In this document: in pieces, positions 3,494 to 57,942 of the stretch
How positions within the stretch are numbered: the stretch's first letter is position 1
Layout of the letters: each line of letters opens with the position of its first letter
NCBI GenBank assembly: GCA_965222225.1
Contig: CBDCTK010000002.1
Span: forward strand, 3,296,001-3,360,000
Direction: 5' to 3'
DNA: 64,000 bases
Origin: Candidatus Poribacteria bacterium
Lineage (GTDB): Bacteria; Poribacteria; WGA-4E; JAJDTR01
Position numbers and translations under genes: made by a program
Notes under the pieces: model-generated
What the model was told of the DNA's origin: nothing
The model's input: the letters and a program-made list of their open reading frames with translations, nothing else
Database searches by the model: none

Positions 3494-3522
3494 GATTGAT
3501 TTTCGCAATGGCAAAGGCTGGT

Positions 3523-3559
3523 AGGAACTCTATCGCCCTTCTTAATCAGTCGGTTGATC
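3523..3559 (+). repeat. 37-bp degenerate micro-repeat (RGGAnnTCTATCGC...TTGATC) inside a REP palindrome; representative of >=14 copies
   Basis: Other copies at 12173-12209(-), 27235-27271(-), 31630-31667(-), 34936-34972, 37337-37373, 37450-37486, 37568-37605, 38053-38090, 40642-40678, 40853-40889, 44249-44285, 52319-52355, 54532-54569. Confidence 0.85.
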
Positions 3560-3564
3560 GCACC

Positions 3565-4947
3565 CTACAAAGACCGCAAGGGTTCATGGCGAGATGCGGA
3601 CTCTAAGTTTTGGTTTACCTCAGTCCACCATTCTGGATACTCAAGCGGTTCGGCATAATGGAGGTTATCAGAAGATTTTCTAAGAAATTCATCTTCAATT
3701 TCTATTTGTCGATTGATCGCCTTCTGATATGCTTCAACAGCGTCTTGGTAGTGACCGCACCTGTGACATGTTGTTCCAAGACGGCAAAGCAACTCGGGAT
3801 AGAGTCGAGACATATCTGAAGGGAAGTCATAGGCGCTCCTTACACGCCTATAACACCAGATTGCCAACTCATAATGTCCAGCTTCATCATTGGCAACAGC
3901 GAGATCGTAATACACCTCATTACGATCGTCTCTGAAGGCGGTCACTATGGCGTTATTATAGCATTCAATTGCTTGCATGTAGTTTCCACCAGCGAAGTAT
4001 TGTTTTCCCAACTCATGGTATGCCCCAGCAAGATTATTACGGCCCTTATTGTCAAGAACAATGGCTTGTTTGAATGCTTGAATCACATCGTCAAATTGAC
4101 CGATCCATTGGTACGCCTCTCCTAGTGCGCTATAGGCATCCGCATAATGGGGTTTGATTTCGATGGCTGTGCGATATGCTTCTATTGCCTTTTCGAGAAC
4201 AGCTCGAACTTCGGGGTGTTTGCCTTGCTTCATTGCCTCAATTTCGTCCTGGGTTTCATTACCATAATCTTCAGACAGTGTTATGTAGGAATCAATCGAA
4301 CCACTGTACGCTTCTCCCAATTCGTAATATGCCTTGGCGTCGTCGGGTTGAATTTCCGTGAGTTTTTGATAGATTTCTATGCGTGCCTCCACGATGTCAA
4401 CTGTTATGATGCCTGTTTGATCGTATAGAAAGGAATCGTCCCAATCGTTAATCTCCTTGTCTTCCATCAATAACGTGTATGTCCATGCCAATTTGTAGTA
4501 GGAATCAGTGAGATCGGGGCAAACTTCAATGGCCTGTTTATACCATTCAATAGCCCGCATGCTGTCAGATGGATACTCTATATCCTCGGATTGCTTCCCA
4601 CCAAAATCGTGGAACAGTCCGGCTAAAGACTTGCGAGCGTCCGCGTGATCCGGTTGGAGTTCGATCGCTTTCTGGTAAGCCCCTATTGCCCCTTTATAAA
4701 GTTCATACTCCTCATCAGCGTAAAGCGATTCTTCAGTGTTCTCGATTTGTATCCTAGTTAATCCTGAGCGACAACACCCTATCCGAAACCACGCTTCGGC
4801 ATGAACAGCGTCAAGCTCAACAGCCTGTTCAAAGCAGGATAGGGCATCGGCATAGTGTTCGTGCTTTATCAAGACTAGCCCTTCCTCACAAAGTTGCTGA
4901 GCAGTTTCAGGGGTGTCGGCGGTTTTCTGCAACGGCTGTTGGTTCAT
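3565..4947 (-). CDS. Tetratricopeptide repeat protein
   Basis: Multiple TPR units (AIEAYRTAIEIKPHYADAYSALGEAY, AYQKAIELQPDHADA). Confidence 0.85.
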   Translation of the reverse strand: MNQQPLQKTADTPETAQQLCEEGLVLIKHEHYADALSCFEQAVELDAVHAEAWFRIGCCRSGLTRIQIENTEESLYADEEYELYKGAIGAYQKAIELQPDHADARKSLAGLFHDFGGKQSEDIEYPSDSMRAIEWYKQAIEVCPDLTDSYYKLAWTYTLLMEDKEINDWDDSFLYDQTGIITVDIVEARIEIYQKLTEIQPDDAKAYYELGEAYSGSIDSYITLSEDYGNETQDEIEAMKQGKHPEVRAVLEKAIEAYRTAIEIKPHYADAYSALGEAYQWIGQFDDVIQAFKQAIVLDNKGRNNLAGAYHELGKQYFAGGNYMQAIECYNNAIVTAFRDDRNEVYYDLAVANDEAGHYELAIWCYRRVRSAYDFPSDMSRLYPELLCRLGTTCHRCGHYQDAVEAYQKAINRQIEIEDEFLRKSSDNLHYAEPLEYPEWWTEVNQNLESASRHEPLRSL

Positions 4948-5034: not shown

Positions 5035-5063
5035 AAAGGCTGGTGCGCAGTGCGCACCCTACA
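5035..5063. repeat. GTAG-type REP palindrome (TGTAGGGTGCGCACTGCGCACCAGCCTTT family)
   Basis: Related copies at 6901-6927, 22864-22892, 28400-28428, 32041-32069 and 40790-40818, all near gene ends or intergenic. Confidence 0.85.
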
Positions 5064-12064: not shown

Positions 12065-12270
12065 GACCTTGTTTGAAGATTCATTTGTCGTAGCACCATA
12101 CAGCCCAAAGCCCTGGAAGGGCGACAGGTGTAAAGCAACGCCGATCTCACACACATCAAAGCCCCAGAGCGGGATCAAACGAGTGGATAACGAGTGCGAT
12201 AGAGATCCCACAGGTAGCAACAACTCAAATACCCAAGAATCGCTTTGCCACCGATTATTCAAACAGGTTC
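12065..12270. mobile_element. Non-autonomous MITE with IS5-like ends
   Basis: Imperfect terminal IRs GACCTTGTTTGAA / TTCAAACAGGTTC with TNA flanks (TTA/TCA). The ~45-bp right end recurs at about 22966-23010 and 31783-31830. Confidence 0.55.
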
Positions 12271-12599
12271 TCAACAAAACCACGATTGGATTGCTCTTCT
12301 TTATGTAATCTGGAGAAAATTCTCTCTTTCAACCCGTAGGTTGGGTTGAACACAGTGAAACCCAACTATTCCGCTCCCATGCCGCCCCTCCAAAGAATTA
12401 TGGGTTACGTGGAAGAAAACCTTCCGCCCTTCTTTTCTTCCATTCTTCCAATCCCTCGACATATGATCTGGAGAAAATTTCCGCTTTCGGGTAAAATATG
12501 GTGGAAGAAACACTGGACGAAGAATTTTATTGTGTTTCATCGTTTGGCTATCTCCATTTTTGGGCTTTTCTAGCGTACTGGAGGACTCGGGTCGACAAC

Positions 12600-15500
12600 A
12601 TGAACTTGAAATACTTTCTTCTCGGAGGAGTCGCTGTATTGCTCGGCTTTCTGCTGTACCCGCGCGGGGAAGAGCCGATCAATCAAGAATATGTTAAACC
12701 CGTCCGTCAGCTTGATAACGAGCCGCTCCATTACACTGACATTTTGAGCACAACGCCGATCTACACGACCTACGATCTCGGTTATGTCTATAAAATCGAC
12801 AAAGTTGAAGTGCAATTTGATAACCCGAATGAAAGTGGACCAAAACAGTTTGACCTGTTGGTTCAAACTGACCGGTTAAAAACACCCTTCCCACGAGCCT
12901 TTTCTTACGTTGGCAGTTCCCGCGAGTATAAGTATTCAACGCATTCTCTCCCCATCCCGGCTGAAGCACGCTGGATACAGATTGTGATTAACGACTGGTT
13001 CAGTGACCGACCAAGATTGAAAAACGAGGAATTCAGAGTTGGCTTACGCTATGAATCACCGAGCCAATTCCTTGCGATGGAGGCGAATCACAATAACTCG
13101 GCAGACCTGATAAAACTGACGGATTTGCTGATTTCTGAGGATTCAAAGTGGAAAGGCGCGCGGAGAATAGAGGAAAAGGTCGAGATAGACGGCAAAACCG
13201 AGCGCCGAATCTCCTACGCTTCTCCAACAGAAGCTCTGGAAGTCACGGCCGATTTGGGAGCCGTCTCCAAGATTTACGGTTTCCGCCTCACAACCGACGG
13301 TCCCGGCAATAACCTCAAGCGATTTCGTGTTCTAATCAGTTCCGATGGGGGGAAATATTCCGAGGTATATGTTTCAAACATCTTGCCTGACGAAACTTTC
13401 ACCGATCTTCATCTTTTTGAGTCGCCTTCCTTTAATCATTTCAACTCCGATGCTCAGGGGCACGACAATGAGATTCGCGCACGTTACATTCGCTTACAGA
13501 TTGATAGTGGAGATTGGTACGGCAGTTATCCGGAGCTTCGTGAATTTGAGGTTTTCACGGACGCCTATCGCCTACCTCCCCCGTCCGAACACAAGTTGAG
13601 CGATTACAACGCGATACAGATGCACTATGAGAATTTGGGACTAGACGGCAATGTCTTGGCACCACACTTAGTTCAAGGATTCGCCTTCGATCGTGGAACA
13701 AGAGACAAAAACCACTATTTCATAGCGACGGATAAGGTGGATGCGGGGAACACGCCCAGCCAGTTGAGTTTCGCCTATCATTACAATCAAGTGAAACTAA
13801 GATACACGGGACTAGATCCGTCGCACCTCTATTGGGTGCGTACAACATACCTGGGTGAAAAGGGTGGGGGACGGACACAGAACTTCGTACTCGACGGGTT
13901 CATCCTGCATGATGCGATGCTCGTGCCGGAAGGAAAAGCGGAGATTCATGTTTTCCGGATTCCGAGCGCCGCATACGCTGATGGCGCAATTGAATTGAAT
14001 TTCAATCGACTAACGGGACCGAACGCTGTTGTTTCAGAAGTCTCCATCCTAGAAGCACGGCTCACATCAGAAATGGATAGTAACGTGAAGTCGACAAATC
14101 TAGATATTGGGTGGGCGACACGCGTTCCCGCTGAACCGTCCTCCGCCAGCCGCGTTGTGATTGATGGAAAACTGAATGAATGGCCTCAACTTTATCCGCT
14201 GCTCCCTGACAGTTATGATACAGCCGCTAACGCCCCTGTAGCTCTTCATGCCCAGTGGGACGAGGATAACCTCTACATCGCGGCGGAAACTGACCGACAA
14301 GCAACGCCGATACAAGATGAACAGTCCGGTCCAATTGAGGACGCGCGCGCGTCCTCGGAAGATAGCCCGGTACTGCACTTGTTTGTTGACACGGCTCTTC
14401 GCAGGTCTCCGGGAATGTATACGGCTAACGACCACCATTTTACATTCACAATCTTCGATTCGGAAGACAACCAACCTCAGGTCGTGCCAGCACAAATCCA
14501 TCATCACCTTGATGCCATTCCCAACAGCATCAATGACCACCAAGCAATCAAGGCAACGGTAACGAAAACAGTCGCCGGACACATCTTGGAGGCGCGAATC
14601 CCCAAGAGCCTCGCGCTGTCTGAATTCCATCCGGAGCTTGAGGGCCGCATCGGATTCAATTACGTGGTAGAAAACTTGAAGCACCCGGACAATCAACCTC
14701 GCCGGTTTGCTTATGGGACGAGTGATTTGACGGCGCCGCCAAATCGCTGGAATGTTCTCCGGCTCGCGAACCAAATCAGCGGACAGGCTGCTATCATTGC
14801 TCAACACCAGTCTGCGAATGGAGAAGGAACCGTTGCTTTAACGGAAATGGACGGCAATAGCCCGCGCTCTCACGCCACGTTTAGTGCCGGAGACATTCTC
14901 ATACTCTGCGTCTGGGATACCGAGCGTAATACCAATCGCATCGAATCCGAGTCGATTACGGCAGAATTGCGAAATGAAACGACAGGGCAATCGTGGAATG
15001 TCGTTTTGCACGAGAGCGATCCCGCTGCGCTCATAGACGACGACCCGGAAAATGACCGGGCGGAGGACAGTTTCCTTTTCGCTGCAAAGGTCGAGACCCT
15101 CTACCGAGAAGTTGATGGGGAAACCCTGGACTCGGGAACGGTCACCAACCCGGAGAATACGCCCACCCCACTCTCCGTTGATGGTAAGGAAGTCATTTCC
15201 TTGACCTACATCGATCCCTATTACAGCACCACCCAACACAATCTGCCTGTTAAGACCTCTACGACAGTAAATTCCGGAACAACAGGGACAGTCGCAATCA
15301 CTAACGAAGCTGGGGAGATAATTCAAGAATTTGAACTTGATGACACAATATATATCCACGTTCAAGATGCGGATTTGGACGCGATAGATCCGGCGTCTGC
15401 TCATGAAATCACAGCGCGTCTGCTTGTCCTTGAAACTCCGGAAGTTGAAATTGTGAAACTGAGATACAGACAAGATCAGGACCTGTACGTGGGAGAAATT

Positions 15501-27138: not shown

Positions 27139-27529
27139 TTTTCCCTCTTTTGAAGTCTTGATTATAATACCATTTCGTTTGAATAACAGTGCATATGGTG
27201 TTTTAATTATATCATTATCTTTCTCGTGGGCGGGGATCAAACGAGTGAACAGCGAGTGGGATAGAGATCCCCTTGCCCCGCCTTGGTAAGACTTGATCGA
27301 TGCTATTTATGCACTGCAAATATAGAGAAATGGTATAACGTGGCAATCCGAGAAGTCGCACGGGGCAGACCGTAAAACTGAAGGTCAACCACGTAGGTTG
27401 CCCCAACAAAAACGGGGCATCCTCACGGATACCCCTACGCTTAGTCCCTTTTCTGGGCGCATGAAATGTAACAATGTGGGTATGCCAGGTTTCAGGGTTG
27501 GATCTGTAACAGTCGAAACCCCGAACACA

Positions 27530-31560: not shown

Positions 31561-32149
31561 ATTTAATTGACTTCAATTTCGGTTACACCTCTCTCGTAGA
31601 ACGGGATGAACGATTTGCAAGCACTAAACGATCAACTGAGTGGATAACGAAGGCGATAGAAGATCCCATAGTGAGTGCGATAGGAATCCCCTGACCACCA
31701 TTTTTTGAAGAGCGCGATAGAACTTCCATAGAAATCTTAAAGGCTTATAATGGGCGACAACAAAACATGGGACAGTCCCTACTCAAATATCCAAAAAGGG
31801 CTCTACCACTTACTTTTCAAACAGTATCTTAACTCGACTTTGTACATTTGAGCGAGGCAACAAACGGTGTCAATCAAGCGTGGAAGAAAAATGGAGGAGA
31901 TTTTAGACATTTGGTCTTTTTGGTTGACCATTGAAAAAGTCTCAAGCGGTTCCTGATACTATGCAACCTGTCGCCCCGCGGGGGCTTTGGTGTGCGGTGA
32001 ATCCACGTTTCTACACACCCGTCGCGTCGCTGGTGCTTTCAAAGGCTGGTGCGCAGTGCGCACCCTACAAGATGGCAATTCAGTATTGTACTTTTGTACA
32101 AAGTCTAGCTTAAGTTTTATCAGCGATACAGCCAAAACAAATCCACGGA

Positions 32150-34599: not shown

Positions 34600-35013
34600 T
34601 TAGTATTATAACATTGAGAAGTCCCTTGGGAAAAGCAAAACATTGCCCAGCCCCAACACAGCCACTCCCGATTTTGGAACTGTGGCGGTCTTCGATTACA
34701 AAATCGCCGATTCCCTTGAAACTAAGTTTTTTCTTGAAAACTCAGTTTCTTTGAACGTGCAGCATTCCGGTAGGAGCAATCGCAAAGCGCGATTCTCGTC
34801 GGCTTTTAGCTTTATTTTCTCTTTTGCCCAAATCAATTGAGGTAACAAACTCTCAGGGCAATCTTATCATTTAGGGGACGGCCCTGTGCCGTCCTATGAT
34901 TTTAGCACCCTCCCCTAGCTGTCCCGAAGGCTGGTGGGATTTCTATCGCAGTCATTATTCATTCCTTTGATCGCACCCTACAACGGCTTGATTGTGCCTT
35001 ACAACAACTGAAT

Positions 35014-37243: not shown

Positions 37244-37659
37244 GTTAATTGCGCAAAGATTTAAGTGGTTTATTTTCTAAGAGTCTATGGTAAGTGCTGG
37301 GGAACGGTTTGTAACATTGTCTGAACTGTGATTCATGGGATCTGTATCGAACTCACTCATCAGTCGTTTGATCTCATTTGATCCTCATTCAGTCGTGTGA
37401 TTGTTCGTTATTCACTGACTTGATTCCTCCGGCAAATCAAAAGGCTGGTAGGATTTCTATCGCGCTCATTATTCATTCGCTTGATCGCAGTGCGCACCCT
37501 ACAGGGATTTCTATCGCGCGTGCTATAGGATTTACTATGGGAGTTCTATCGGGATTTACTATCGCACAGGATTTGCTATCGCGCTCCCTGTTCAGTCGCT
37601 TGATCGTTATTCACTCGTTTGATTCGTCCTACAGTGGTTGTTTGGCGGACAGATGGAAC

Positions 37660-37958: not shown

Positions 37959-38376
37959 GTGTTAATATGTTTTTAACATTGGGGAAGGCAGTGAGGAGTG
38001 GAGAAGGACAGAAAACGGGGAAACGAGAAGGGGGGAAGTTGGGGGAGGTGAGGGGATTGTCTATCGCAGTCGCTATTCGCTCCTTTGATCGTTTGATCTT
38101 ATTCGGTCACTTGATCTTTGTTCAGTCGCCTGAGTGTTATTCATCTCCGAGACGAGATAGACTGTACCTTTGGATTTTCGAGCATGCTCGACCACATCGT
38201 TGGCGCAGCCCCAATATGCAACTAAAACGGCATTGCGCGTGCAGACCCAAGACTTGGCCCTTGTTGTAGCACGACATCAAACGTCCAAGCCTAGCTTACT
38301 TCCGGGTGGTTGAGATATCAGGTTTTTTGTCACGCTCCAGCTTAATAACTCTGTGTTCGTTGAATTGAAAATAGGG

Positions 38377-40533: not shown

Positions 40534-40894
40534 GAAGGCGAGAGCGGAATACGACGAATTTGACCAGTATCGAATCACGCCCTACTGGCGCGAGCGGGTT
40601 CGGGACAAGAAAAAGGATTTCTATCGTACGCGATTTGCTATGGGAGCTCTATCGCAGTCATTATCCATTCCCTTGATCGGTCGCTATCCGTTCCCTTGAT
40701 CCTTCGCTGTTTGGTCGGTTGATCCTACTGAATCGCGACCAGGAGGTCGCTCCTACAGGACCTACACTTGCCGTCCCGCCGGGGATTTCAAAGGCTGGTG
40801 CGCGGTGCGCACCCTACAGAGTCGCGATTCGGAGATCGCTCCTACAGAGGATAGGATTTCTATCGCGCTCCTTATTCAGTCGCTTGATCGCACC

Positions 40895-43916: not shown

Positions 43917-44459
43917 GAGGGGTGTGCATAAGTGAATTTCTCAGCCTTGGTCGCACAATTTGGGCTGAGCGGAGTGAATCTTATTTACCAAGTTGCTTTG
44001 AATCCCGATCTTATCGGGGCTAATCCCTGCTGAATTTGCGATTTAGACATGCGATTCACATTGCGCTCCTCTGGAGCGCAGAGATTGGACGCATCACGAT
44101 TCTATTGACATCGCACTCCTCTGGAGTGCAAGAGGTAGGAAATCTCTATTAAGGAACGCTTTCTCAAAGCTAACCAAGGATCGAAAAACGAGTGTTGCTT
44201 GCTGAAAGAATTTTTCCGACAGGAATAATGGCGCGCTACAGACATATCAGGATCTCTATCGCACTCACTATCCGTTCGTTTGATCACTCCTTATCCAGTC
44301 GCTTGATCTCACTCTGGAGCGAAGGTTCCTATTAGACTGTTAGGACTATCTTGTATTATACTTGCTGGAGGCACGAACATGGCGAGGGCTTCGTTGACGT
44401 ATCCATTTTTTCTGTGTCATCTTCTGAATCTATTTCAGTAATAGTTATGCACACGCCTC
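43917..44459. mobile_element. Nested non-autonomous element (MITE), IS256-like ends
   Basis: 15-bp IRs GAGGGGTGTGCATAA / TTATGCACACGCCTC (1 mismatch), 8-bp target duplication AGTTATGT (43909-43916, 44460-44467), no transposase. Confidence 0.75.
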
Positions 44460-44511: not shown

Positions 44512-44537
44512 ACTTTGAAGGCGCGTAAATGTCGTGA

Positions 44538-45026: not shown

Positions 45027-45242
45027 GGCGGTCACGATTATGTCCTCCATTATGTTAGCAAAAAACACCTATACATATATTACCATATTGGCTAATTTTC
45101 TATAGCCGGTAAGCATTATTGTACGGAATTAGTAGCTTGTAGCTTTTAGACTGACGACAAACATAAAACTTGGTACCCTGTCGTAAATCTTTTCGTCACA
45201 CGTAGATGTCCATAGTGACTATTCTTCTCGTAGGAGTTTGCT

Positions 45243-46097
45243 ATGGACATTTTGAATCTTATGAAAGAGTTTCCAAATCAAGAATCTTGTCTCAGATTTA
45301 TAGAGGAAAAACGTTGGAAGGACGGTGTTTGCTGTATCCACTGTGGCAGTGAAAAAGTTGGACGCAAGAACAAAAACGACATTACTACTGGTTGGAATTG
45401 CTACGATTGTGAATCTAGCTTTTCGGCTACAGCAGGAACCATCTTCCATGGTACCAAGATACCTCTCCAGAAATGGTTTTTGGCTATCTCAATTCTTTCC
45501 AATGCCAAGAAAAGCATATCGAGTTGTCAGCTTGCTCGTGACTTGGACATGAATCAAAAGTCCGCTTGGTATATGGCAATGCGCCTCCGTGAGAAAATGA
45601 GTGATAGTGATGAATTGCTGAAAGGGATAGTTGAAGCGGACGAAACCTATGTCGGCGGCAAACCCAGAGCAAAATCTAAGAGAGGTAGAGGCACAAATAA
45701 ATCTCCCGTCATCGGCGTAGTCGAGAGAGGCGGTCGGGTGGTTGCTAAATTCATGAAGGTTCTATCTGGTGAAAATATCAGAGAATTCATCCTTAGCAAT
45801 GTCTCACCCGATGAGTCTATTCTTATGACTGATGAATTTCGCTCTTACAATAGTCTGGACGAAGATATCGAAAGACATGTTATCCATCACCAAGAGAGAT
45901 ATGTTTCTGAGGACGGCGTAACTCACACCAACACCATCGAGTCGTTTTGGGCTTGTGTCAAGAGGTCATTCTACGGAACGCATCATCACTACAGCAAGAA
46001 GTGGCTGCCACTGTATATCATGGAGTCTTGCTGGAAATATAATCGCAGAAAAGATGATGAGATTTTCATAAGATTTTTTGATGAATGCTTCACCTGA
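45243..46097 (+). CDS. IS1595-family (ISXO2-like) transposase
   Basis: Zn ribbon CIHC...CYDC, GTIFH, EADETYVGG, TDE, TNTIESFW. Confidence 0.92.
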   Translation: MDILNLMKEFPNQESCLRFIEEKRWKDGVCCIHCGSEKVGRKNKNDITTGWNCYDCESSFSATAGTIFHGTKIPLQKWFLAISILSNAKKSISSCQLARDLDMNQKSAWYMAMRLREKMSDSDELLKGIVEADETYVGGKPRAKSKRGRGTNKSPVIGVVERGGRVVAKFMKVLSGENIREFILSNVSPDESILMTDEFRSYNSLDEDIERHVIHHQERYVSEDGVTHTNTIESFWACVKRSFYGTHHHYSKKWLPLYIMESCWKYNRRKDDEIFIRFFDECFT

Positions 46098-46533
46098 GCC
46101 ACATGAATTGTTTGGCTATCGGTATATTCTGTCAACGACAACATCATGGTGTGCTGAAAATCCCATAGTGTTGGAAATTAAAATCCCGCAGATAACCCGC
46201 AATGCTCCCGCGAGCATGTACAAACGCTTGGTCAACATGATATGCCTCCATTTCTCTCTTATAGAGATGTATTTTAGTGTGAATCAAGATTCCGAACACT
46301 GTCTAAAATGATTGTACATTAAGAAGAGAAAAGCAAGCAAATCGACCAAAAAGCAGTTAACTACTAAGTCCCTTATTGTATCATCTAAACACAGTGAAAT
46401 CAAGGTTTCCCTGACAACCGACATATCACTTCCTATCATCCTGTCGGGGTGTCTATTCTCATTTTTTCACCATACGTATGAAAAGGGATTTGTAGTCTAC
46501 GACTAGTGGGAGGGTACTAATCACCCGCACGGT

Positions 46534-47727
46534 CTACACCTCGTCCCGGACATCTATCTTGCCCGTCACAACCTCGGAGATGAGGGATTGGCGGTATTCT
46601 TTGAGGAGTTTGATGCTTTGTTCTTCGGTGGAGCGGTGTTCGTCGATTTGGCGTGTCTTGTGGTCAAGGAAGGCAGCGATTTGAAATTGTTCAGAGAGTG
46701 TAGGATATGCGATCTGGATATCCCCAACTTCGGATTCGTTTATTGATGGAACGGTGCCACCTCCCCTGTAGTACCTCTCAAAATCAACGTTTATCATCGT
46801 ATAGTACAAAAGCTTATAGTTTAATTGGGTTGAATATACGGACATCATGTTGTTGTCAATACATGAGTCTTTGACAAGGATATTTCGCTTGTTCAATAGC
46901 AATGCGGCGCCAATTTTCGGAAACACGATGCTCTTTGGTTTATGGAGCGTAAACTTGAAAGCATGAACCTCGTGGGAGGATACGGTATTTTGGGCACACA
47001 ACATTTCGACCTTGTTCGTGGGTAAATTGGTATCAGACACTTTGAAAAAAGGTACTTCCAAACTTGTTCTGCCCTGTAAATCATGCGAGAATCCATTCCC
47101 CGATTTGAGAGAACAGAAATATTTCAATTTTTTGACTTGCCAATACTTGGGTATCTCCCCAATCCAGTCTACCCCTGACGGTTTCATCTCCACATTTGGG
47201 TCAAGCCCCTTCGTCACTGCCTGATGTATCAGGGAGGCACGGTATTCACCCAGGAGTTCTATCTTTCGTTCTTTGACGCGGATGAGGTCGTCGATTTGTC
47301 CCGTCTTGTGGTCAAGGAAGTTGGCGATTTGGCGTTGTGTGGGAATTGGAGGTATTGAGGTTGGTACTTGTCGAAGGACAATCTGTGTTAATAGAGGTTG
47401 TGCAGACCCGCCCGCATAACGATTTAAGTTTAGCCCTCCAAGCAAGTAGTAAATGTATTCTATGTCGAATGAAATATCCTTCGGTTGTCCTACAATTGTG
47501 TTGTCTGAAGCCCAGAAATGCGTCTTGCAGTATTTGATCGAACCGCAATATGCACCCACACGACCAATGATTAAGCCGTTTTGATGTGTATACTCACTAC
47601 TTTGCCCTATCAAGCCGTTCGAACCATAAACTGGATATACTCCATCACCTCCTGGCTTTATGGATTTACCATTGAAGAATCTTAGCACATTGCCGAGCAC
47701 GGTAGGTTTAAAATGACTAGACTGCAT
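46534..47727 (-). CDS. hsdS: Type I restriction-modification specificity subunit
   Basis: Two TRDs separated by conserved repeats (Q.QIA.FLDHKT.QID), SGVDWIGEIP, C-terminal SLISEVVTGKIDV. Confidence 0.93.
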   Translation of the reverse strand: MQSSHFKPTVLGNVLRFFNGKSIKPGGDGVYPVYGSNGLIGQSSEYTHQNGLIIGRVGAYCGSIKYCKTHFWASDNTIVGQPKDISFDIEYIYYLLGGLNLNRYAGGSAQPLLTQIVLRQVPTSIPPIPTQRQIANFLDHKTGQIDDLIRVKERKIELLGEYRASLIHQAVTKGLDPNVEMKPSGVDWIGEIPKYWQVKKLKYFCSLKSGNGFSHDLQGRTSLEVPFFKVSDTNLPTNKVEMLCAQNTVSSHEVHAFKFTLHKPKSIVFPKIGAALLLNKRNILVKDSCIDNNMMSVYSTQLNYKLLYYTMINVDFERYYRGGGTVPSINESEVGDIQIAYPTLSEQFQIAAFLDHKTRQIDEHRSTEEQSIKLLKEYRQSLISEVVTGKIDVRDEV

Positions 47728-47943
47728 TAGTTGAATTCCTACGCGATTATCACTAATTCATGTCCGAATCCGGATTTCTTGGTTTTTAGGATTAAATTAA
47801 CAGGGCGGACTTTATCTGTTGCCATTTACTATTCTGAGAATCCTGATTCTGAAACCTCTGTTAAAATCATCGCCAATCAATTTAGTTTCAGCACAACCGC
47901 CCATAACATAAATGTCTAATTCAGTAAGCTTTCGCCATCCCGT

Positions 47944-48450
47944 TCAAGCGTGTCTACGTAATTGCCGAATGTCATCCTCGCAAATAAATTCAATTGTTAC
48001 GCCATTTCGACAAAATGCGTCGCGGAGTTGCCACCACTGTTTATCCATGGCTTGGAGGATGGGCGGCTTTTCGGCATGGGCACGGGCAACTGCGATAAAT
48101 TTCCGGTCGTCGGGATCGAATTTTTGCAATTCTGGGTCGTCAGGGAATTCTATGAACTCAGTTTGTGAATTTTCAATAGGCGTAATCGGAACCAATTCGC
48201 ACTGCTCCGTGTTTGTCCGATTTCGTAGGCTCCACACGAAAAACCTATCACCGGCGCCCGGTTTTCCACTTTCACTGAGATTTCTTGAATACTCGCCGAG
48301 AATTATCCAATCCGCGTCAAGAATCAATTTCATCTCGCCCTGCATAATCCGTTCTAGCCAGTTAATGCAGGATTCTTCACACTCCTTAAAGTCTTTTCCC
48401 CATTCGCCGTTGGCGAGCCTTGCTACGTTTGTATCTACAATTACCATCAT
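47944..48450 (-). CDS. PIN-like domain protein (putative ribonuclease effector)
   Basis: N-terminal VIVDTNV, I..EY, DPDDRKFIAVA, ILQAMD acidic residues; 4-bp overlap with the upstream ATPase. Confidence 0.7.
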   Translation of the reverse strand: MMVIVDTNVARLANGEWGKDFKECEESCINWLERIMQGEMKLILDADWIILGEYSRNLSESGKPGAGDRFFVWSLRNRTNTEQCELVPITPIENSQTEFIEFPDDPELQKFDPDDRKFIAVARAHAEKPPILQAMDKQWWQLRDAFCRNGVTIEFICEDDIRQLRRHA

Positions 48451-49721
48451 AATGTGTTTGCTTTCCGACGCTTAATTTCAGCTTTGGCTCTTTCTACAAC
48501 ATCACCTGCGTCATCGCCAAAGAAGTCCCGGGGCCAATTGCTAACGTTGCCGTATTCATCCATCTTCAGTGGTTCAATTTGGGATGTGCCATCGTTGATT
48601 TGGCAGGAATAGAGTGCCATGGCATCCGCCGAAATCTCTCCCTCGGCGATGCGGCGCGTCAAGCGGTGAAGCAGGTGCTCGCTGTGGCTCTCAAGGATAA
48701 TCTGGATATTCCGGTTTTTTACGACATCAATGAGGACATCCGCTAATTCGGATTGTACCTTCGGATGGAGGTGCGCTTCGGGTTGTTCGAGAATAAGGAT
48801 TGATCCTTCGCGAGCGTAGTAGCAGTCAACCAGCACCGGAAAGACTTGGGAGACGCCGAAGCCCACGTCCGTGAGCCGCACCTCGGGACCGCCCTTGTGC
48901 TTCGTGACGCGGACATCGTAACTGCCTTTTTTATTAAGATTGGGTTGGATTCGATAAGAGTCAATCAGATCCAAGCGTTGGAGCCATTCAAGTATCTGCT
49001 TCTCAATGGAGAGGAGTTGTATTCTGCCTGAAAGCAGGGCGGGAATTGCCTTTTCTCCACGCTGTCCGATGTTTTCTGGATGATCGCCCTTCCACGTGTA
49101 CCAGTGCCGTGGGGGTTCGCGCAGTGGGCCTAGGTAGTGGATTCTCTTGAATAGGTTTTCAAATGCGTCTTGGCGAGTCAAAAAAGCTTCCAAATATTTG
49201 TCCGGTCCACCACGCTGTTCAACAACTCCATAGCATCGAAACGCCTCTTTCTGTTTAGTTGAAAAATGTCTTCCGGCTGCATAATCGGGGAACGTGAACG
49301 TGTATCCCGCCCCATCTCTTACTAAATCCCATCTGGAACCGTAGCCCTCGTAACGAAAAGTATGTAAATTAGGATGCTCGGATGTTTTCTCAATGGACAT
49401 CGAAAAGGTTAAGTTTTGTCCAATCTTCATTTCTTCAGGTAGCTCACACGACACGGAAATGCGGAGGCTCAAATTCGCGTTATGTTGGTGGATGACATTA
49501 TCAAAACTGACCAAATTGACAAGCGATTCCTCAGTGCCGAAGTAGAGTGGCTCATTCCACTCCGGTGGACGCTCCACAGTCTGCTTGAGCATGAGCAGTA
49601 CCTGCAGGATACCTGTCTTGCCGGAGCTATTGGCGCCGAAGAATCCGGTCAATGGAGCGAAATCTAATTTGCCTGTGTCTTCCCATGATTTGAAATTCTC
49701 CGCTCTGAACTCGGTTATCAT
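48447..49721 (-). CDS. ABC-type ATPase (AAA_21/AAA_15) with DUF3696-like C-terminus, paralog 2
   Basis: ENFKSW, Walker A GANSSGKT, HYLGPLR, DVGFGVSQ signature, ILEQPEAHLHP, ESHSEH, WP..FF. Confidence 0.88.
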   Translation of the reverse strand: MITEFRAENFKSWEDTGKLDFAPLTGFFGANSSGKTGILQVLLMLKQTVERPPEWNEPLYFGTEESLVNLVSFDNVIHQHNANLSLRISVSCELPEEMKIGQNLTFSMSIEKTSEHPNLHTFRYEGYGSRWDLVRDGAGYTFTFPDYAAGRHFSTKQKEAFRCYGVVEQRGGPDKYLEAFLTRQDAFENLFKRIHYLGPLREPPRHWYTWKGDHPENIGQRGEKAIPALLSGRIQLLSIEKQILEWLQRLDLIDSYRIQPNLNKKGSYDVRVTKHKGGPEVRLTDVGFGVSQVFPVLVDCYYAREGSILILEQPEAHLHPKVQSELADVLIDVVKNRNIQIILESHSEHLLHRLTRRIAEGEISADAMALYSCQINDGTSQIEPLKMDEYGNVSNWPRDFFGDDAGDVVERAKAEIKRRKANTL

Positions 49722-49743
49722 GGCTCTTGTCTCCTTCTCGTAG

Positions 49744-49770
49744 AACGTTAGTATCGACAATCACCGTCAT
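49744..49770 (-). pseudogene. Remnant of a PIN gene start (MTVIVDTNV) between the two ATPases
   Basis: Matches MMVIVDTNV of 47944-48450 and begins 3 nt after the stop of paralog 1. Confidence 0.7.
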
Positions 49771-49772
49771 TA

Positions 49773-51035
49773 CTAGCTTATTCCCCGTCGATCCATTTCC
49801 GCTCTGCCTTGTCTTATCAAGTCGCCGGTGACATCGCCGAAGAACTCCTGGGGCCAATTGCTGATGTTGCCGTATTCATCAACTTGTAGCGGTTCAATTT
49901 CGGATACCCCGTCGTTAATTTGACAGAAATAGAGCGCCGTGTCATCCACGCACAGTTGTTCCTCGGCGGTGCGGAGCATTAAGCGGTGAAGCAGGTGCTC
50001 GCTGTGGCTTTCAAGGATAATCTGCAGATTTTGACTCTTCACGGCATGAATGAGAACATCACCCAGTTCGGATTGCACTTTCGGATGGAGGTGTGCCTCG
50101 GGCTGTTCGAGAATGAGGATTGAGCCTTCGGGTGCGTAATAACAGAGAATCAACACCGGCAGCACTTGGGAGACGCCGAAACCCACGTCGGTTAGTTGGA
50201 TTTCGGGACCGCCCTTGTACTTTCTGATGAGAAATTCGTAATCCTTTTCTGTACCAGAAACGGGAACAAGGCGATAGGAGTCTATCAAACCCAATTCTTG
50301 TAACCACTTCACTATTTGTTTGTCAACTGAGAGAAGTCGAACTCGCCCTGAAAGCATTGCAGGAACCATCTTTTCTCCATGCCGTCCAACCCCTTCTGGA
50401 TGGTCGCCATTCCACGTATACTGATGTCGAGGATATTCGCGCAGCGGACCTAGGTAGTGAATTCGGGCGAAAAGGTTTTCAAAAGCTTCTTCAAGGCCAG
50501 AGAAAAACCGTTGAGTAAAATCAGCAGGTGGAGAGTTGGATGACAAATCCCGAATGCCGTAGCATCGAAATAAAGATTCGATGCGTCCTTTTCCTATGGG
50601 AGTAACGGCATTGTGGTCCGGGCCTTCAGGCAAAATCTCAAAGCAATGCTCACCAACTTGGTAAGAGAACCTGCCTACACTCTTGTTATGGAAATTAAAG
50701 TAAAAATTAAGGACGTCAAGTTCATATGTATTCATAAGCATCTTCTTTTCGGGCACGCGCCACGATACAGAGATGCCAAGACTTATACCATTTCCGGACC
50801 GGTGAATAACATCATCAAAGCTACCCAAGTTGGCCAACGAATGCTCATCACCAAAGTAGAGTGGTTCATTCCAGTCCGGTGGACGCTCCACGGTCTGTTT
50901 GAGCATCAGCAACACCTGCAAGATACTGGTTTTGCCGGAGCTATTCGCACCGAAAAATCCGGTTATTGGGGCGAAACGCAATTTGCCTGTGTCTTCCCAC
51001 GATTTGAAGTTCTGTGCCCTGAGTTTCGTTATCAT
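49773..51035 (-). CDS. ABC-type ATPase (AAA_21/AAA_15) with DUF3696-like C-terminus, paralog 1
   Basis: Same motifs as paralog 2; AAGGAGG RBS upstream. Confidence 0.88.
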   Translation of the reverse strand: MITKLRAQNFKSWEDTGKLRFAPITGFFGANSSGKTSILQVLLMLKQTVERPPDWNEPLYFGDEHSLANLGSFDDVIHRSGNGISLGISVSWRVPEKKMLMNTYELDVLNFYFNFHNKSVGRFSYQVGEHCFEILPEGPDHNAVTPIGKGRIESLFRCYGIRDLSSNSPPADFTQRFFSGLEEAFENLFARIHYLGPLREYPRHQYTWNGDHPEGVGRHGEKMVPAMLSGRVRLLSVDKQIVKWLQELGLIDSYRLVPVSGTEKDYEFLIRKYKGGPEIQLTDVGFGVSQVLPVLILCYYAPEGSILILEQPEAHLHPKVQSELGDVLIHAVKSQNLQIILESHSEHLLHRLMLRTAEEQLCVDDTALYFCQINDGVSEIEPLQVDEYGNISNWPQEFFGDVTGDLIRQGRAEMDRRGIS

Positions 51036-51065
51036 AGCCTATACCTCCTTTCCGTCCGTCTAAAT

Positions 51066-52109
51066 TAGGAGTTACGCAGTTGGCTGAAGCGTATAAAGAG
51101 GTTGTGCCAAATAAGCCCGTACCGCATCTCTGACAATAGAGAGTTTTGCATCAAACCAACTGATACCGGTATGATAGCAATAGTGCTCAATTCTCAGAAA
51201 GGCTCTCAGCGCTAAACCGATATGATTTCTTTGAGTGCGAGCAGAGCGCACTTGTGCGCGTTCAATGCCAACAAATTGCTTAATCCCGCGATGATATTCT
51301 TCTATTGTCCAAGACCATTCGGCATATTTGAGACGCGTCAATTCGTCCATCTGTAAATCATTCGTTGCCCAATATTCAATGTCACCTTCTGGAGTGTCAA
51401 CCTTAAATACTCGAATCAATCCATAGCCTTTGAGATGGACAATTGTACCTGTTGATTCACTCGGAAGCGTACTCACCGGACGGTTACCGGAATAATCTTT
51501 ACTGACAAGTCGGTTGGCAGCTAGACGAGTAAGCCACTTCCAACCATGACCTCGCACCGCTTTTAGATTCTTTAGACTGGCATACCAACTATCAAAACAC
51601 ACACATTCAGGAGCAAAACCGCGTGTTTTCGCTTCTTCAAGCATGGCGCGGAAATGCTCATTCTTCGTCAAGCCGTCTTTGGCTTTATCATAGATTCGAT
51701 AATCACACGGAATATGTCTATCGCCATCCGTCCAGAGCAAAGTGACCAAGTTAATCCCATTCACAACTCGGTGGTGTTTCCCTGACCAGTGTTTTGTCAC
51801 GAGTTCAATCTTTTGTGAATAAGGTTTATCCAGAGTCGAGTCATCTATAACTAAAATTCCGGATTCTAATTTCACCTGATTTCTCGATTCTTGCCACAGT
51901 TTGCCAGTATCGGGTTCCTCTCGATGCAAGAGCCGTGTTATCGAATCGTGAGCCGGAGGATTATCAGCTTGGGGTTGAACTTTTTCCGATTCAAGACAAC
52001 TGTAACTTTTCTGAGCGGCTACCAAGAAATCAATATAGTCAGTGTCAGTATATTTAGGGGGATTCATACTCAAATTATAACCTATTTTCACTCAACTGCG
52101 TAACTCCTA
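51066..52109 (-). mobile_element. IS701-family insertion sequence, copy 2 (1044 bp)
   Basis: Same 17-bp IRs, own 5-bp target duplication TAAAT. Confidence 0.93.
51072..52091 (-). CDS. IS701-family DDE transposase
   Basis: Identical to copy 1 except LLWTDG versus LLRTDG. Confidence 0.9.
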   Translation of the reverse strand: MKIGYNLSMNPPKYTDTDYIDFLVAAQKSYSCLESEKVQPQADNPPAHDSITRLLHREEPDTGKLWQESRNQVKLESGILVIDDSTLDKPYSQKIELVTKHWSGKHHRVVNGINLVTLLWTDGDRHIPCDYRIYDKAKDGLTKNEHFRAMLEEAKTRGFAPECVCFDSWYASLKNLKAVRGHGWKWLTRLAANRLVSKDYSGNRPVSTLPSESTGTIVHLKGYGLIRVFKVDTPEGDIEYWATNDLQMDELTRLKYAEWSWTIEEYHRGIKQFVGIERAQVRSARTQRNHIGLALRAFLRIEHYCYHTGISWFDAKLSIVRDAVRAYLAQPLYTLQPTA

Positions 52110-52398
52110 TAAATTATACCATTTTTCTAAAATTCAAGTACATTGATTACGTGGAACAAGTAACGAAACTTGCAAGGAGCGGAATAAGAAGCATTGTGTC
52201 CGCACAAAAGCGGCGGGGCAAGGGGTCTCTATTGATCAACCGACCAAATAGGGAAGGCAATAGGTAAATTTACTCGTTATTCACTCGTTTGTGCCCGCTG
52301 GCGCTCTCAAAGGCTGGTAAGAGTTCTATCGCACTCCCTAGGCAGTCGCTTGATCGCAGTGCGCACCCTACAACTACACTAAATTATACCTTCTGTGG

Positions 52399-54156
52399 CT
52401 ACCCGTCTGAAACTAATTCTAACACGTCCCTCAGCAAGCCCTCGTTTTGACCCTCAAGCGCCCGCATCTCATCGGCGATCTCTTGGGGTGACCGCAGCGG
52501 CGTGTGACGATAGAAATAGCGATTGAAGTTGATTTCGTAGCCCACCTTGTCCTTCTTCCGATCCATCCAACCGTCCGGCAGGTGGGGTTTAATCTCTCGC
52601 CGGAAGTAGTCGCCGATGTCCTCCGCGAAGGGGATGCGCTCGTCCTCTCGCAGCGCGGTGTCCGGTTTCGGAACCCCCTTCTTGTCCTTTACGACCAACT
52701 CGTTTTGCTCGCCGGGGGCATCGCGCTTTTCGACCAGCGGTCTTTCGATAATCACCTTGGTGTAGCCGAAGAACTCGTTCGGATAGATCTTGGAGTGCTC
52801 GCATTCCTCGAAGTTCGTGTAGATGTGCACCAGCCGCTCAATGTGCAACTCGGAGATGAAAACGCTTTTGTTGCCGAGATTTCGTTTCATCGACTCGAAG
52901 AAACCGGCGCCGTTTATTAGTTGGATCTTGCCCCGCCGCCGATCCAGTTTGCGGTTCGTCAGGATCCAGATGTAGGTGGAGATGCTGGTGTTGAAGAAGA
53001 GTTTGTCGGGCAACGCGATGATGCACTCCAGCCAGTCGTTTTCGATAATCCAGCGTCGGATGTTACTCTCGCCGCTGCCGGCGTCGCCGGTGAACATCGG
53101 CGAGCCGTTCAGGACGATTCCTACACGGCTGCCGCGACTCTCCATCTTGGAGAGCATGTGCTGCAGGAATAGCAGCGCTCCGTCGGAACTGCGGGGCGTG
53201 CCGGCTGTGAACCTGCCGCCGGTAGTGCCCGCCTCCGCTTTCACGGCGGATTCATCGGACTTCCAACTGACGCCGAACGGTGGATTGGTTATCATGTAGT
53301 CGAAGCGTTTCCCTTGAAACTGGTCGTCGGAGAGGCAGGAGCCGAGTTGGACCGCGTCGGGGTTTTCGCCGGTTATCAGCATGTCCGATTTGCAGATGGC
53401 GTAGGTCTGCGGGTTGAGTTCCTGTCCTAACAGCCGGATATCGGCGTCCGGATTGATCTGCTCGCGAAAGTATTCCTTGCCAATCGTCAACATGCCGCCG
53501 GTGCCGCAGCAGGGATCGAAGATGCTGCGGATAACCCCCTGTCCGCGCGCCTCCTCGCTGTGTTCGGCGAATAGCAGGGAGACCAATAGCCGCACGACAT
53601 CCCGCGGCGTGTAGTGTTCCCCACTGGTCTCATTAGACATTTCCGAGAATCGGCGCAGCAACTCCTCAAACACCTGTCCCATGGTGTGGTTGTCCACCTG
53701 ATTCGGGTGCAGATCGACCTCCGTGAACTTGTCGCAGAAGATGAACAGTCGATTGTTCCTGTCCAGTCGGTCGATAAACTGATCGAGGTTGAAGTTTTCG
53801 ATGATGTCCCGGACATCCTTGCTGAAGCCGTTGAGGTAGTTGTTGAAGTTGAGACGGATGTTGTTGGGGTCGGCTTTCAGCCGGGAGAGGTCGTATCGGG
53901 AGGTGTTGTAGAAACTGGAATCCGTCTCTTTCAGAATTATCTGCGGCAGGGATTCTTCGGGGACGACATCTTTGAAGCGGCTGTAGGTTTCAATGGATTT
54001 GTCTTTTCGGTCGTCTTCCGTCAAGATGCAGTCCAATCGGCGCAGCACGAGAAAGGGGAGGGTGATGTCGCCGTATTCGTGGGGTTTGAATAAGCCTCGG
54101 AGGACATCGTCGGCTACGTTCCAAACGAGGTTTGAGAGTTCTTGGTAGTTTGCCAT
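52399..54156 (-). CDS. hsdM: Type I restriction-modification methyltransferase subunit
   Basis: GEHYTPRDVV, FDPCCGTGGM (motif I), TNPPFG (motif IV), GYEINFNRYFY. Confidence 0.95.
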   Translation of the reverse strand: MANYQELSNLVWNVADDVLRGLFKPHEYGDITLPFLVLRRLDCILTEDDRKDKSIETYSRFKDVVPEESLPQIILKETDSSFYNTSRYDLSRLKADPNNIRLNFNNYLNGFSKDVRDIIENFNLDQFIDRLDRNNRLFIFCDKFTEVDLHPNQVDNHTMGQVFEELLRRFSEMSNETSGEHYTPRDVVRLLVSLLFAEHSEEARGQGVIRSIFDPCCGTGGMLTIGKEYFREQINPDADIRLLGQELNPQTYAICKSDMLITGENPDAVQLGSCLSDDQFQGKRFDYMITNPPFGVSWKSDESAVKAEAGTTGGRFTAGTPRSSDGALLFLQHMLSKMESRGSRVGIVLNGSPMFTGDAGSGESNIRRWIIENDWLECIIALPDKLFFNTSISTYIWILTNRKLDRRRGKIQLINGAGFFESMKRNLGNKSVFISELHIERLVHIYTNFEECEHSKIYPNEFFGYTKVIIERPLVEKRDAPGEQNELVVKDKKGVPKPDTALREDERIPFAEDIGDYFRREIKPHLPDGWMDRKKDKVGYEINFNRYFYRHTPLRSPQEIADEMRALEGQNEGLLRDVLELVSDG

Positions 54157-54447
54157 GGTGGTTTATTAGGGAATCGGGGATTTGATAACCAGTGAGAAAT
54201 CTCTGTAGCATAGCTGTAGGGAACGCAGATCCGCGTTGCCTACATTAACCCTGTAGAGGATTCCATCTTCGGCAAAATATGAGAATCAATGTGCTGCGAA
54301 TGGATATGATTATGGTCGCTATACGCCAGGCGGTTTGCCACGGATTTCTATTGTAGCATGGGGACATTGGGGATGTCTATAGTGAGTTGGAAGATAGGGG
54401 AGTGGGGTGAGGAGTTCGGAGGAATGGTAGGCGGGGGAACTGTATTG

Positions 54448-54627
54448 GGATCTACTATCAGGACTTTCTATCGCCTTAGGTTCTCTATCGCGCATGCTAT
54501 TCAGGATCCCTATCGCGCAGGGATCTCTATCAGGATTTTCTATCGCCTTCGCTATTCACTCAGTTGATCGCTCCTTTTTCAGTCGCTTGATCTATTCGCT
54601 TCCTTGATCGTTCAGTTGATCCTACAA
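54448..54627 (+). repeat. Tandem mosaic of half-units of the 37-bp micro-repeat
   Basis: A run of GGA..CTATC(G) 5' halves followed by a run of ..TTGATC 3' halves; similar mosaics at about 37337-37632, 40615-40730 and 31630-31735(-). Confidence 0.75.
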
Positions 54628-56121: not shown

Positions 56122-56181
56122 GTGGCTACGCTTGTAGCCGCGGACCGCTACGTCTGTCCAACTAGAAGGAGAATTTTGAAT

Positions 56182-57729
56182 ATGCGTGAAGAAGGAAATC
56201 AACCCCACCTACCGGAGGAAAGGGAGTACAGGAAACTGTTCGGCTTAGACATCTACTTGACTCCCGTATTTGTAATTTCCAGTATCGCCATCCTCATCTT
56301 CGTCGTCGGGGCGCTCGTATTCCAAGAAGGCGCGACAAAGGTTTTCGGAAACACCCGCACGTGGCTAACTACGAACCTTGATTGGTTATTCATGATCACC
56401 GCCAACCTTGTCTTTCTGTTTTGTCTGGTTGTGGCGATCTCTCCACTCGGCAAGGTGCGCCTCGGGGGTGTGGATGCAAAACCGGAATACTCCAACTTGA
56501 CCTGGCTTTCCATGCTCTTCGCGGCGGGCGTGGGCATCGGTCTGCTGTTTTTCGGGGTGGCGGAGCCGATGTACTACCTGCAAAACCCTCCGCTCGGCAT
56601 TACCGCCGGGACGGCGGAAGCCGCGACCGTCGGCATATCGGCGACGGTTTTTCACTGGGGGTTTCACGGCTGGGCAATCTATGGTGTCGTCGGACTCGCC
56701 CTCGGCTTCTTTGCCTACAATCGAGGCCTTCCCCTCACCATCCGCTCGGTGTTCTATCCCCTGCTCGGAGACCGCATCTGGGGCTGGCCCGGCCATGTCA
56801 TTGATACGTTCGCCATATTCGCGGGTCTGTTCGGGCTTGCGACCTCGCTCGGATTGGGGGTTAAACAGGTCACATCCGGCATGAACTATCTGTTCGATGT
56901 TCCCGCAAACAACATCACCATGGTGATACTGATTGTGGTGATTACGGCCATTGCTATGATATCGGTGTTAACCGGTATTAACGTCGGGATAAAGCGTCTC
57001 AGCCAGTTCAACGTAATCCTCGCGTTTCTGTTGCTGGTGGCTGTTATCATTCTCGGTCCAACACTCTACATTTTCCGCAGTATGTTCGATGGGCTTGTTG
57101 GCTATGTTGTTAAGATTGTGCCACTCAGCAACTGGATTGGACGGGAGGACACCGGCTTCTTTCACGGCTGGACCACGTTCTACTGGGCGTGGTGGATAGC
57201 ATGGGCGCCCTTCGTTGGCACCTTCATTGCCCGCATCTCAAAGGGGCGTACGGTACGCCAATTCGTAATATTCGTGTTACTCTTGCCGACACTGGTATGT
57301 TTACTCTGGTTTGGCGCCTTTGGCGGCACCGCCCTTCACCAACACCTCGTCGAGGGCTATACCGGTGTGACCGAGAATGTCAAGTTGGAACTCGCGCTTT
57401 TCAAAATGTTAGATCAACTGCCGTTAACGGCGCTACTTTCCTCCGTCGCTATGCTTCTAACAATCATCTTCTTCGTTACCTCGTCAGACTCAGGCTCACT
57501 CATCATTGACACCATCGCAGCCGGCGGCAAAATGGACGCGCCTGTAGCTCAGCGTGTGTTTTGGTGTTCGATTGAGGGGTTAATCGCCATCGCGTTATTG
57601 CTTGGAGGCGGGCTGAAATCGTTACAGGCGGCGGCGCTCGCAACCGGTTTCCCGTTTGCAATTGTCCTATTGGGAATGGCGGTGTGCGTCTGGATGGGGC
57701 TTCGGAAAGAGGCCGCTAATCCCACATAA
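56182..57729 (+). CDS. BCCT family (betaine/carnitine/choline) transporter
   Basis: SMLFAAGVGIG, FHWG.HGW, WTTFYWAWWIAWAPFVGTFIARISKGRT, TSSDSG; start taken at MREEG. Confidence 0.95.
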   Translation: MREEGNQPHLPEEREYRKLFGLDIYLTPVFVISSIAILIFVVGALVFQEGATKVFGNTRTWLTTNLDWLFMITANLVFLFCLVVAISPLGKVRLGGVDAKPEYSNLTWLSMLFAAGVGIGLLFFGVAEPMYYLQNPPLGITAGTAEAATVGISATVFHWGFHGWAIYGVVGLALGFFAYNRGLPLTIRSVFYPLLGDRIWGWPGHVIDTFAIFAGLFGLATSLGLGVKQVTSGMNYLFDVPANNITMVILIVVITAIAMISVLTGINVGIKRLSQFNVILAFLLLVAVIILGPTLYIFRSMFDGLVGYVVKIVPLSNWIGREDTGFFHGWTTFYWAWWIAWAPFVGTFIARISKGRTVRQFVIFVLLLPTLVCLLWFGAFGGTALHQHLVEGYTGVTENVKLELALFKMLDQLPLTALLSSVAMLLTIIFFVTSSDSGSLIIDTIAAGGKMDAPVAQRVFWCSIEGLIAIALLLGGGLKSLQAAALATGFPFAIVLLGMAVCVWMGLRKEAANPT

Positions 57730-57942
57730 GATGGGTACCGTGCACTATAGCATCTCCATGAACCCACGAATCCTAGGTGTGTTAGGTCTTAGGCAGTCGA
57801 ACACTCAAAGATGCTTAGTCAGGCGATTCTGTAGGGAATAACGAGGATCTCTATCGCGCTCGTTATTCCCTACAAGAGCCGCGTAACATAAAATCATGGC
57901 TGAAGATCGTAACTCCTGTTACTTACGTCAGTCTTGTCCGTG

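Follow-up and report, generated by a model that had tools for sequence, protein, structure and literature searches.

The kinds of sequence closest to the element described here are the cyanobacterial SDRs and the REPs, although it lacks some defining features of a GTAG-REP and departs from the description of SDR5. As a class, SDRs are shorter than 50 nt, non-coding, nested, structured with compensatory changes, and inserted without target duplication; SDR1, SDR4 and SDR5 of the Nostocaceae, which Elhai et al. reported in 2008, are said to measure 21-27 nt, to show compensatory change and to nest within themselves. The ends of IS200/IS605 and their derivatives, like the IS91/Helitron types, combine a fixed 3' end some 10 nt beyond a hairpin with strand specificity and the absence of target duplication, and the rolling-circle types (IS91/Helitron) are replicative. 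SDRs are cited in PMC4390886, PMC5861425 and PMC3116915, the first of which has SDR5 inserting precisely between bases 3 and 4 of HIP1. For REPs, PMC3479197, PMC8266576 and PMC3333891 describe an E. coli TnpA-REP that requires an AA/GC bulge and ignores iREP; it processes REP but not iREP and senses unpairing rather than sequence at the bulge (PMC8266576), which consists of C27:A12 and A13:G26, the same bases as the AA/GC mismatch of the present element (PMC3479197). GTAG-guided enzymes are reported to cut at C|T or C|A (PMC8266576) and integration of BIMEs into REP-bearing targets is proposed (PMC3333891). REP families and Y1 subclasses are described in PMC3733652 and PMC6006769, whose supplementary repeat tables could list a related repeat; the passages of PMC2884548 hold nothing relevant to the element.

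The element is a 36-37 nt non-coding hairpin of Poribacteria that ranks among the smallest jumping DNAs known, and the enzyme that moves it was not found. That it is mobile and selected for its shape is almost certain. In the window, that is, the whole 64-kb stretch analysed, a pattern made of fixed columns only finds 15 copies against 0.00 in 100 shuffles, the additional one being a degenerate copy at 52234-52263, and the 14 copies of the original prediction all lie where it placed them (pattern exact in 5, at most 2 mismatches in 11, at most 4 in all 14), with the near-fixed length it described (37 or 38, counting the terminal C common to element and target). A scan of GTDB with the strict pattern gave at least 127 loci among the matches listed, all of them in Ca. 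Poribacteria and spread over 13 genomes; the window has repeats in common with Poribacteria loci, as well as an IS701 (90%) and further genes (71-77%), and is therefore probably poribacterial itself. The copy set used below comprises 380 de-duplicated copies from the window and those loci, recognised by the fixed columns only with at most 2 mismatches, so that in this set the conservation seen at fixed columns is a circular result whereas the covariation of the free columns is not. Density is 11-24 copies per 100 kb in these loci, which are enriched for the element. A coding role was rejected, given that stops occur in some frames (by inspection) and that only 8 of the 380 copies lie well inside ORFs. 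An assembly artefact was likewise rejected, since 13 other assemblies carry the element (8 of them titled chromosomes) and orthologous copies are held in common. Rfam gave nothing at gathering score in the window and one chance hit (E 8) in 37200-41000; plasmids and phages, queried with one copy, gave chance-level matches only (E 0.5-6). Among the titles and abstract openings listed by literature searches, none describes the element.

Variation is indeed confined to fixed columns and drift alone does not give such a pattern, as had been argued, but the accompanying claim that the unit is not palindromic fails. The structured strand reads G-ATC-AA-nn-GA-nY-GRAYA-Rn-GA-nn-GC-GAT followed by a 9-10 nt tail ending TCCY, in the order three pairs, AA/GC mismatch, two free pairs, tandem G.A, two free pairs, GRAYA loop and tail, the fixed dinucleotides being the AA/GC mismatch, the tandem G.A pairs and the G.A closure of the loop. 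The variable columns pair with each other, and the unit is therefore an imperfect hairpin whose fixed columns are mostly its mismatches and loop. In the window copies alone 97 of 98 cells pair; shuffles give 79%, with none of 500 reaching the real value, and slid controls 18-45%. Across the 380 copies, mutual information is highest for columns 19-27, 16-30 and 15-31, with 20-26 fifth behind a pair that is a product of the two tail lengths; four column pairs are Watson-Crick in 354, 353, 276 and 275 copies, where 137, 182, 117 and 175 are expected, and G.T wobbles number 183 on one strand versus 26 on the other. With RNA parameters the minimum-energy fold is the covarying fold in four of four copies, with DNA parameters in none of four; under either set no folded copy is more stable than shuffles, and thus it is shape, not stability, that is conserved. 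The base before each GA runs C>T>G>>A, and the near-absence of A before either GA fits sheared G.A geometry.

Table 1. Copies of the element, nested arrays and empty host REPs in the window
Position	Strand	Feature
3523..3559	-	full copy in GTAG-REP, 8 target nt missing; structured strand -
5035..5063	-	empty host REP, GTAG strand -
12173..12209	+	full copy in GCCCC..GGGGC hairpin family; structured strand +
27235..27271	+	full copy in GGCGGGGC..CCCCGCC hairpin
31630..31667	+	full 38-nt copy, innermost of array; prefixes extend to 31727
32041..32069	-	empty host REP
34936..34972	-	full copy in GTAG-REP, 8 target nt missing
37337..37373	-	full copy, then end fragments of older copies to ~37425
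37450..37486	-	full copy in GTAG-REP, 1 target nt replaced
37504..37624	-	nested array: 4 prefixes, full copy 37568-37605, 1 suffix pairing with last prefix
38053..38090	-	full 38-nt copy, then suffixes to ~38147
40614..40724	-	nested array: 2 prefixes, full copy 40642-40678, 2 suffixes
40790..40818	-	empty host REP
40853..40889	-	full copy adjoining REP foot
44249..44308	-	full copy 44249-44285 and suffix of older copy
52223..52294	.	older copy split by opposite-orientation degenerate copy (52234-52270); ends approximate
52319..52355	-	full copy in GTAG-REP, 1 target nt replaced
54447..54621	-	nested array: 5 prefixes, full copy 54532-54569, 3 suffixes
57844..57868	-	partial copy in GTAGGGAATAAC REP

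Junctions were read from the 309 copies with clear ends, the other 71 being omitted for unclear ends. An exact 9+9 nt empty allele exists somewhere in the data for 110 of them, compared with 12 when the flanks are shuffled. Of these sites 1 loses no target nt, 48 lose 1 nt, 44 lose 2 nt, 10 lose 3 nt and 7 lose more, which is to say that 1-2 nt of target are replaced, with no target duplication, in 92 of the 110. A terminal C is common to element and target in 278 of 309 copies, and the RGGA start lies at set distances in 301 of 380, with a near match in 54 more. The comparison of empty with filled orthologous sites, put forward in the original prediction as a check, shows the inserted element in two pairs of loci (L055/L046 and L058/L105), 36 nt in and CG out. 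In both pairs the variable bases of neighbouring older copies are identical or almost so between the two species, and the variation therefore resides in the donor pool. At a third orthologous pair different arrays have grown at one site, and several orthologous gaps in other species, among the matches listed, have neither the element nor the host repeats.

REPs are insertion targets, as had been proposed, and the empty forms at 5035 and 32041, the separate hairpin family around 12173 and the partial state of 57844 were borne out. The supposition that the copies at 3523, 34936, 37450 and 52319 sit at one and the same point of their REP holds for the left junction, GGT|, which they have in common, but not for the right, where two lose 1 nt and two lose 8 nt. 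The partial copy is probably a full insert collapsed over a 9-nt repeat common to the REP arm; a full insert in the GTAGGGAATAAC REP is present at L076:3054. In 71 distinct site types the -1 base on the structured strand is G in 67, the base after the first break is C in 39 and A in 21, C is rare at -3 and -4, and the second break has no fixed base or dinucleotide. The structured strand follows the GTAG strand of host REPs in a ratio of 67:6 (six GTAG families) and is locked at 18:0 and 28:0 in two other families, counts whose effective numbers are lowered by amplified composites, although the families with more than two cases each span 5-9 genomes. Regional orientation concordance, at only 63-67%, lies below this lock. 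A host foot accompanies 110 of the 380 copies versus 5.5-5.7% of the intergenic background, and the hosts comprise at least eight families plus the element itself, at many positions. A general preference for hairpins is unsupported, joined flanks falling below -5 kcal/mol in 27.5% of cases versus 33% of the intergenic background. In 64 of 98 co-directional gaps the structured strand coincides with the sense strand (p=0.003). A replichore bias was not supported: judged by GC skew, whose values are small, the counts lean 185:127 and 171:141 to the C-rich strand. Once inserted, copies remain in place: 78 sites yielded no excision scar, and two candidates within elements rank at the level of control deletions. 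As guides to the target, the variable bases show weak associations only (mutual information up to about 0.1 for single columns and up to 0.17 for tail length), explainable by amplified composites.

Arrays of nested prefixes and suffixes, overlooked in the original prediction, are a main target in their own right. Among 353 copies, 73 are enclosed by the prefix and suffix of an older copy that runs in the same orientation and 19 by those of one that runs the opposite way, most of the latter being listed from one genome and hence not independent; a further 47 adjoin just a prefix and 32 just a suffix. Host halves pair across the nested insert in 50 of 69 positions, whereas shuffling gives 28.7 (0 of 5000 as high) and pairing with the inner copy instead gives 25 or 21. 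The four arrays that start at 31630, 37504, 40614 and 54447 are therefore built like Russian dolls, one insert within another. The halves missing from arrays probably collapsed over shared ends. As to diversity, 249 clean copies fall into 106 haplotypes versus the 144 expected under independent pairs (range 129-157), the 380 copies include 340 distinct 37-mers, and alleles are common to genomes with modest differences. The element is a lineage-structured population under shape constraint, not the outcome of site-wise randomisation. Some REP-plus-insert composites have also been amplified together (L051; genome f207).

Set against the described systems, the element groups with the SDRs and REPs, nearest to the SDRs; its insertion signature lacks an explanation, and no enzyme is known to move it. 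Each feature of the SDR class named above is found in it, and both are tiny non-coding mobile units without target duplication. SDR5 enters behind the G of G|ATC, in line with the G|C/A rule of the element, which nonetheless targets varied REPs and drops 1-2 nt where SDR5 inserts precisely into HIP1. Nostoc plasmids hold 4 similar HIP1-flanked inserts of 18-21 nt among 37 candidates, but these differ in sequence, form two small stem-loops and leave the HIP1 halves intact, and a model of the element run against 150 kb of Nostoc plasmid gave no hit below E 0.15. With the GTAG-REPs (group 2, TnpA-REP/RAYT) it shares size, intergenic abundance and a strand-specific imperfect hairpin with an AA/GC mismatch, and RAYTs are present in its genomes. 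In contrast to them, the GT[AG]G foot lies outside the unit as part of the host REP (in 22 of 380 copies GTAG directly adjoins the 5' end, and it is at varied distances otherwise), no flanking RAYT was found in the loci examined, the cut is G|M rather than C|T or C|A, and the element moves as a fixed-end singlet that parasitises true REPs. REPINs, as presented in PMC3116915, are similar in their shape-selected hairpin, compensatory change and insertion into or next to other copies; they move as doublets with no singlet excision seen there, whereas the element consists mostly of singlets with their own empty sites. Four genomes have other tails, two of them with inverted doublets; inverted doublets of the element occur in L063 and L115, a further likeness to REPINs. 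Unlike the IS200/IS605 and IS91/Helitron types, a single hairpin holds both ends in 36 nt and target bases are lost; there is also no autonomous partner among the sequences searched, and neither the loss-free insertion 3' of a fixed 4-5 nt target nor the precise excision of IS200/IS605 derivatives. MITEs (DDE) are marked by terminal inverted repeats and target-site duplication, in place of which target bases are lost at 109 of 110 sites. The paired variation and the A's conserved on both strands differ from the independent template-adenine variation of DGR products, and the element is dispersed, variable and without spacers, unlike CRISPR repeats; no cas genes were seen among 30 window proteins scanned.

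How, then, does it move? The leading model, at about even odds, is a non-autonomous micro-transposon copied as single-stranded DNA by a putative trans-acting HUH (RAYT-like) enzyme. An HUH tyrosine enzyme is suggested by the strand-specific reading of a mismatched hairpin, by the lack of duplication and by entry on the GTAG strand; the mismatch shared with the E. coli REP bulge and the presence in Poribacteria of a RAYT flanked by the host REP family also speak for it. Re-copying would be limited to copies that keep the shape, so that pairs would drift jointly while mismatches, loop and ends stay fixed, giving the look of two fixed and two free bases. With less assurance, a trans-acting enzyme of the RAYT/IS200-TnpA type might recognise the folded single strand, copy the element out with the donor left in place, and join it to hairpin DNA that is single-stranded; since the CY of the tail can face the AG after the stem, the intermediate may be a nicked dumbbell or a small circle. 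Several facts run against an HUH enzyme: the element has no GTAG foot of its own, a single HUH cut-and-join would lose no bases whereas 109 of 110 sites lose at least one, peel-and-paste should leave scars that the 78 sites lack, and DNA parameters do not yield the covarying fold. Known RAYT or IS200/IS605 chemistry fits neither the G|M cut nor the loss of 1-2 nt nor the missing scars. The fuller picture of a 36-nt replicative parasite of REPs and of itself, moved by an undescribed single-strand reaction, copied out by a shape-reading enzyme and swapped, as a nicked dumbbell, for 1-2 bases after a G on the hairpin's active strand, can be offered only tentatively.

The RNA-parameter folds, the wobbles, the tandem G.A and the GNRA-like loop would be natural in a bacterial micro-SINE. 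In such an element a small RNA would be cut from transcripts; a reverse transcriptase, primed at a staggered nick, would start at the UCCY end, proceed as far as the 5' G and use a single C:G pair for rejoining, at a cost of 1-2 nt. Such a route, though somewhat unlikely, accounts for the terminal C in common and the small loss, for intact donors without scars and for the sense bias; it is opposed by the absence of RT motifs from 4722 ORFs (a crude regex), the lack of an Rfam match, the C>T>G>>A order before GA where an RNA model puts G best, and neighbours identical head to tail in only 1 of 10 cases, so that there are no rolling-circle concatemers, and it leaves the REP-polarity lock unexplained. 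No dedicated enzyme at all would be needed if, at hairpin nicks made by the host or a RAYT, a DNA polymerase carried out the healing by switching to an extruded copy elsewhere as its template and then returning. Small losses, one-base homology at one end and a replicative outcome agree with such a repair patch, but ends fixed to the base in most copies, losses held tightly to 1-2 nt and conserved mismatches that template switching does not need make it improbable. A hairpin that binds protein or RNA, is selected by the host and spreads passively with REPs is very improbable as the origin, for all that copies avoid ORFs, favour the sense strand and in some cases are amplified with their REP: copies destroy each other by nesting (92 of 353), orthologous gaps lack the element, and the variety of hosts and positions likewise speaks against the predicted binding site carried by REPs. 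Selection of shape for protein recognition probably does hold, but at the copying step. Error-prone synthesis from one invariant master, DGR-like and the other mechanism originally suggested, could draw on the many distinct 37-mers and the similar allele sets in all genomes, yet it is scarcely credible, given that independent errors cannot keep partners complementary, that pairs are linked, that A's are conserved on both strands, that the variable bases of older copies at orthologous sites differ little or not at all between two species and that no master was seen in the loci examined.

The implications extend beyond one locus. The element shapes intergenic DNA in a major sponge-symbiont phylum, and it comes with junctions exact to the base, a rule for its targets, a polarity, orthologous sites that are empty and a succession of events read from nesting; all of these supply concrete predictions, both in an in vitro test and in a presence/absence search for the enzyme. 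More broadly, a motif of two fixed and two free bases can be the footprint of a mismatch-rich hairpin. Should the single-strand reaction be real, nested arrays would be a dated record of single insertions and the enzyme a duplication-free writer of short DNA oligos; should the carrier be RNA, the element would be a bacterial micro-SINE.

In about 1.6 Mb of redundant sequence, a small part of each of the 13 genomes, no enzyme gene was tied to the element, and gene families adjoining or bracketed by copies gave no recurring candidate. A 177-aa gene at 36710 adjoins arrays in three genomes but was rejected, since a terminase gene comes after it and the genes related to it are decayed. Four Y1-type genes occur in the loci; none is bracketed by the element there, all being flanked by other repeats, and one has a copy just past its stop. 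For the IS200-type protein of L049 a homologue search confirmed the family and gave no context. In this Poribacteria locus a RAYT (L049:15522-16097) is flanked by the host REP family, and the host REP is therefore a true REP.

Composites of the element and its host hairpin are also amplified passively, as shown in the poribacterial locus L051 by three tandem copies of a 330-bp unit that contains a REP and the element inserted in it (L051:10001-10690). Duplication in tandem also affects the REPtron of L049, likewise a poribacterial locus, where it involves the 3' end of the RAYT gene and the REPs. The same locus encodes one of two IS200-type TnpA proteins carrying the motif that PMC6006769 gives as the signature of subclass 1.2, and this gene is flanked by CACTCC..GGAGTG hairpins without GTAG, which are common targets of the element and are entered with locked polarity. 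Tandem G.A pairs also occur on the GTAG strand of a GTAG-REP family with GTTGGGTT arms (five instances, several loci), and the motif may be general among Y1-associated hairpins.

The element's inverted doublets, in which a linker of about 19 nt, itself conserved, connects the two halves, resemble the REPIN arrangement and possibly represent a second mobile form. The HIP1-splitting inserts of the Nostoc punctiforme plasmids fit SDR5 as it has been described.

Features of the window and of comparison loci
Feature	Location	Strand	Remark
Inverted element doublets	L063:10001-10079, 13795-13873, 14656-14734; also L115
REPtron	L049:15407-16710		RAYT with host REP family on its flanks
IS200-type TnpA	L049:18099-18593; L009:9176-9700		Y---Q--HH motif
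HIP1-splitting inserts, 18-21 nt	L129:13322, 29598; L130		Nostoc punctiforme plasmids
Purine-rich runs	window 38015-38052, 54340-54446		upstream of element arrays
Identical 28-nt sequence	window 23008-23035, 45123-45150		inverted, 22 kb between copies
Longer dispersed repeat	window 12223-12275, 22962-23014, 31781-31833		adjoins GCCCC..GGGGC hairpins
IS701, two copies	window 33555-34599, 51065-52109		near-identical
Terminase large subunit gene with 177-aa gene	window 35014-37243	-	terminase matches phrog_38 and lies behind the 177-aa gene

Within the window, the purine-rich runs look like short, very old element prefixes, and the longer dispersed repeat, present in other genomes too, may be a MITE or a REP-linked module. 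The second IS701 copy interrupts a type I restriction-modification locus (40895-54156), in which an IS1595 and a pair of AAA ATPase paralogues are also found. No further head genes were seen near the terminase gene. Degenerate relatives of the adjacent 177-aa gene adjoin element arrays in three other poribacterial loci (L015, L024 and L031).
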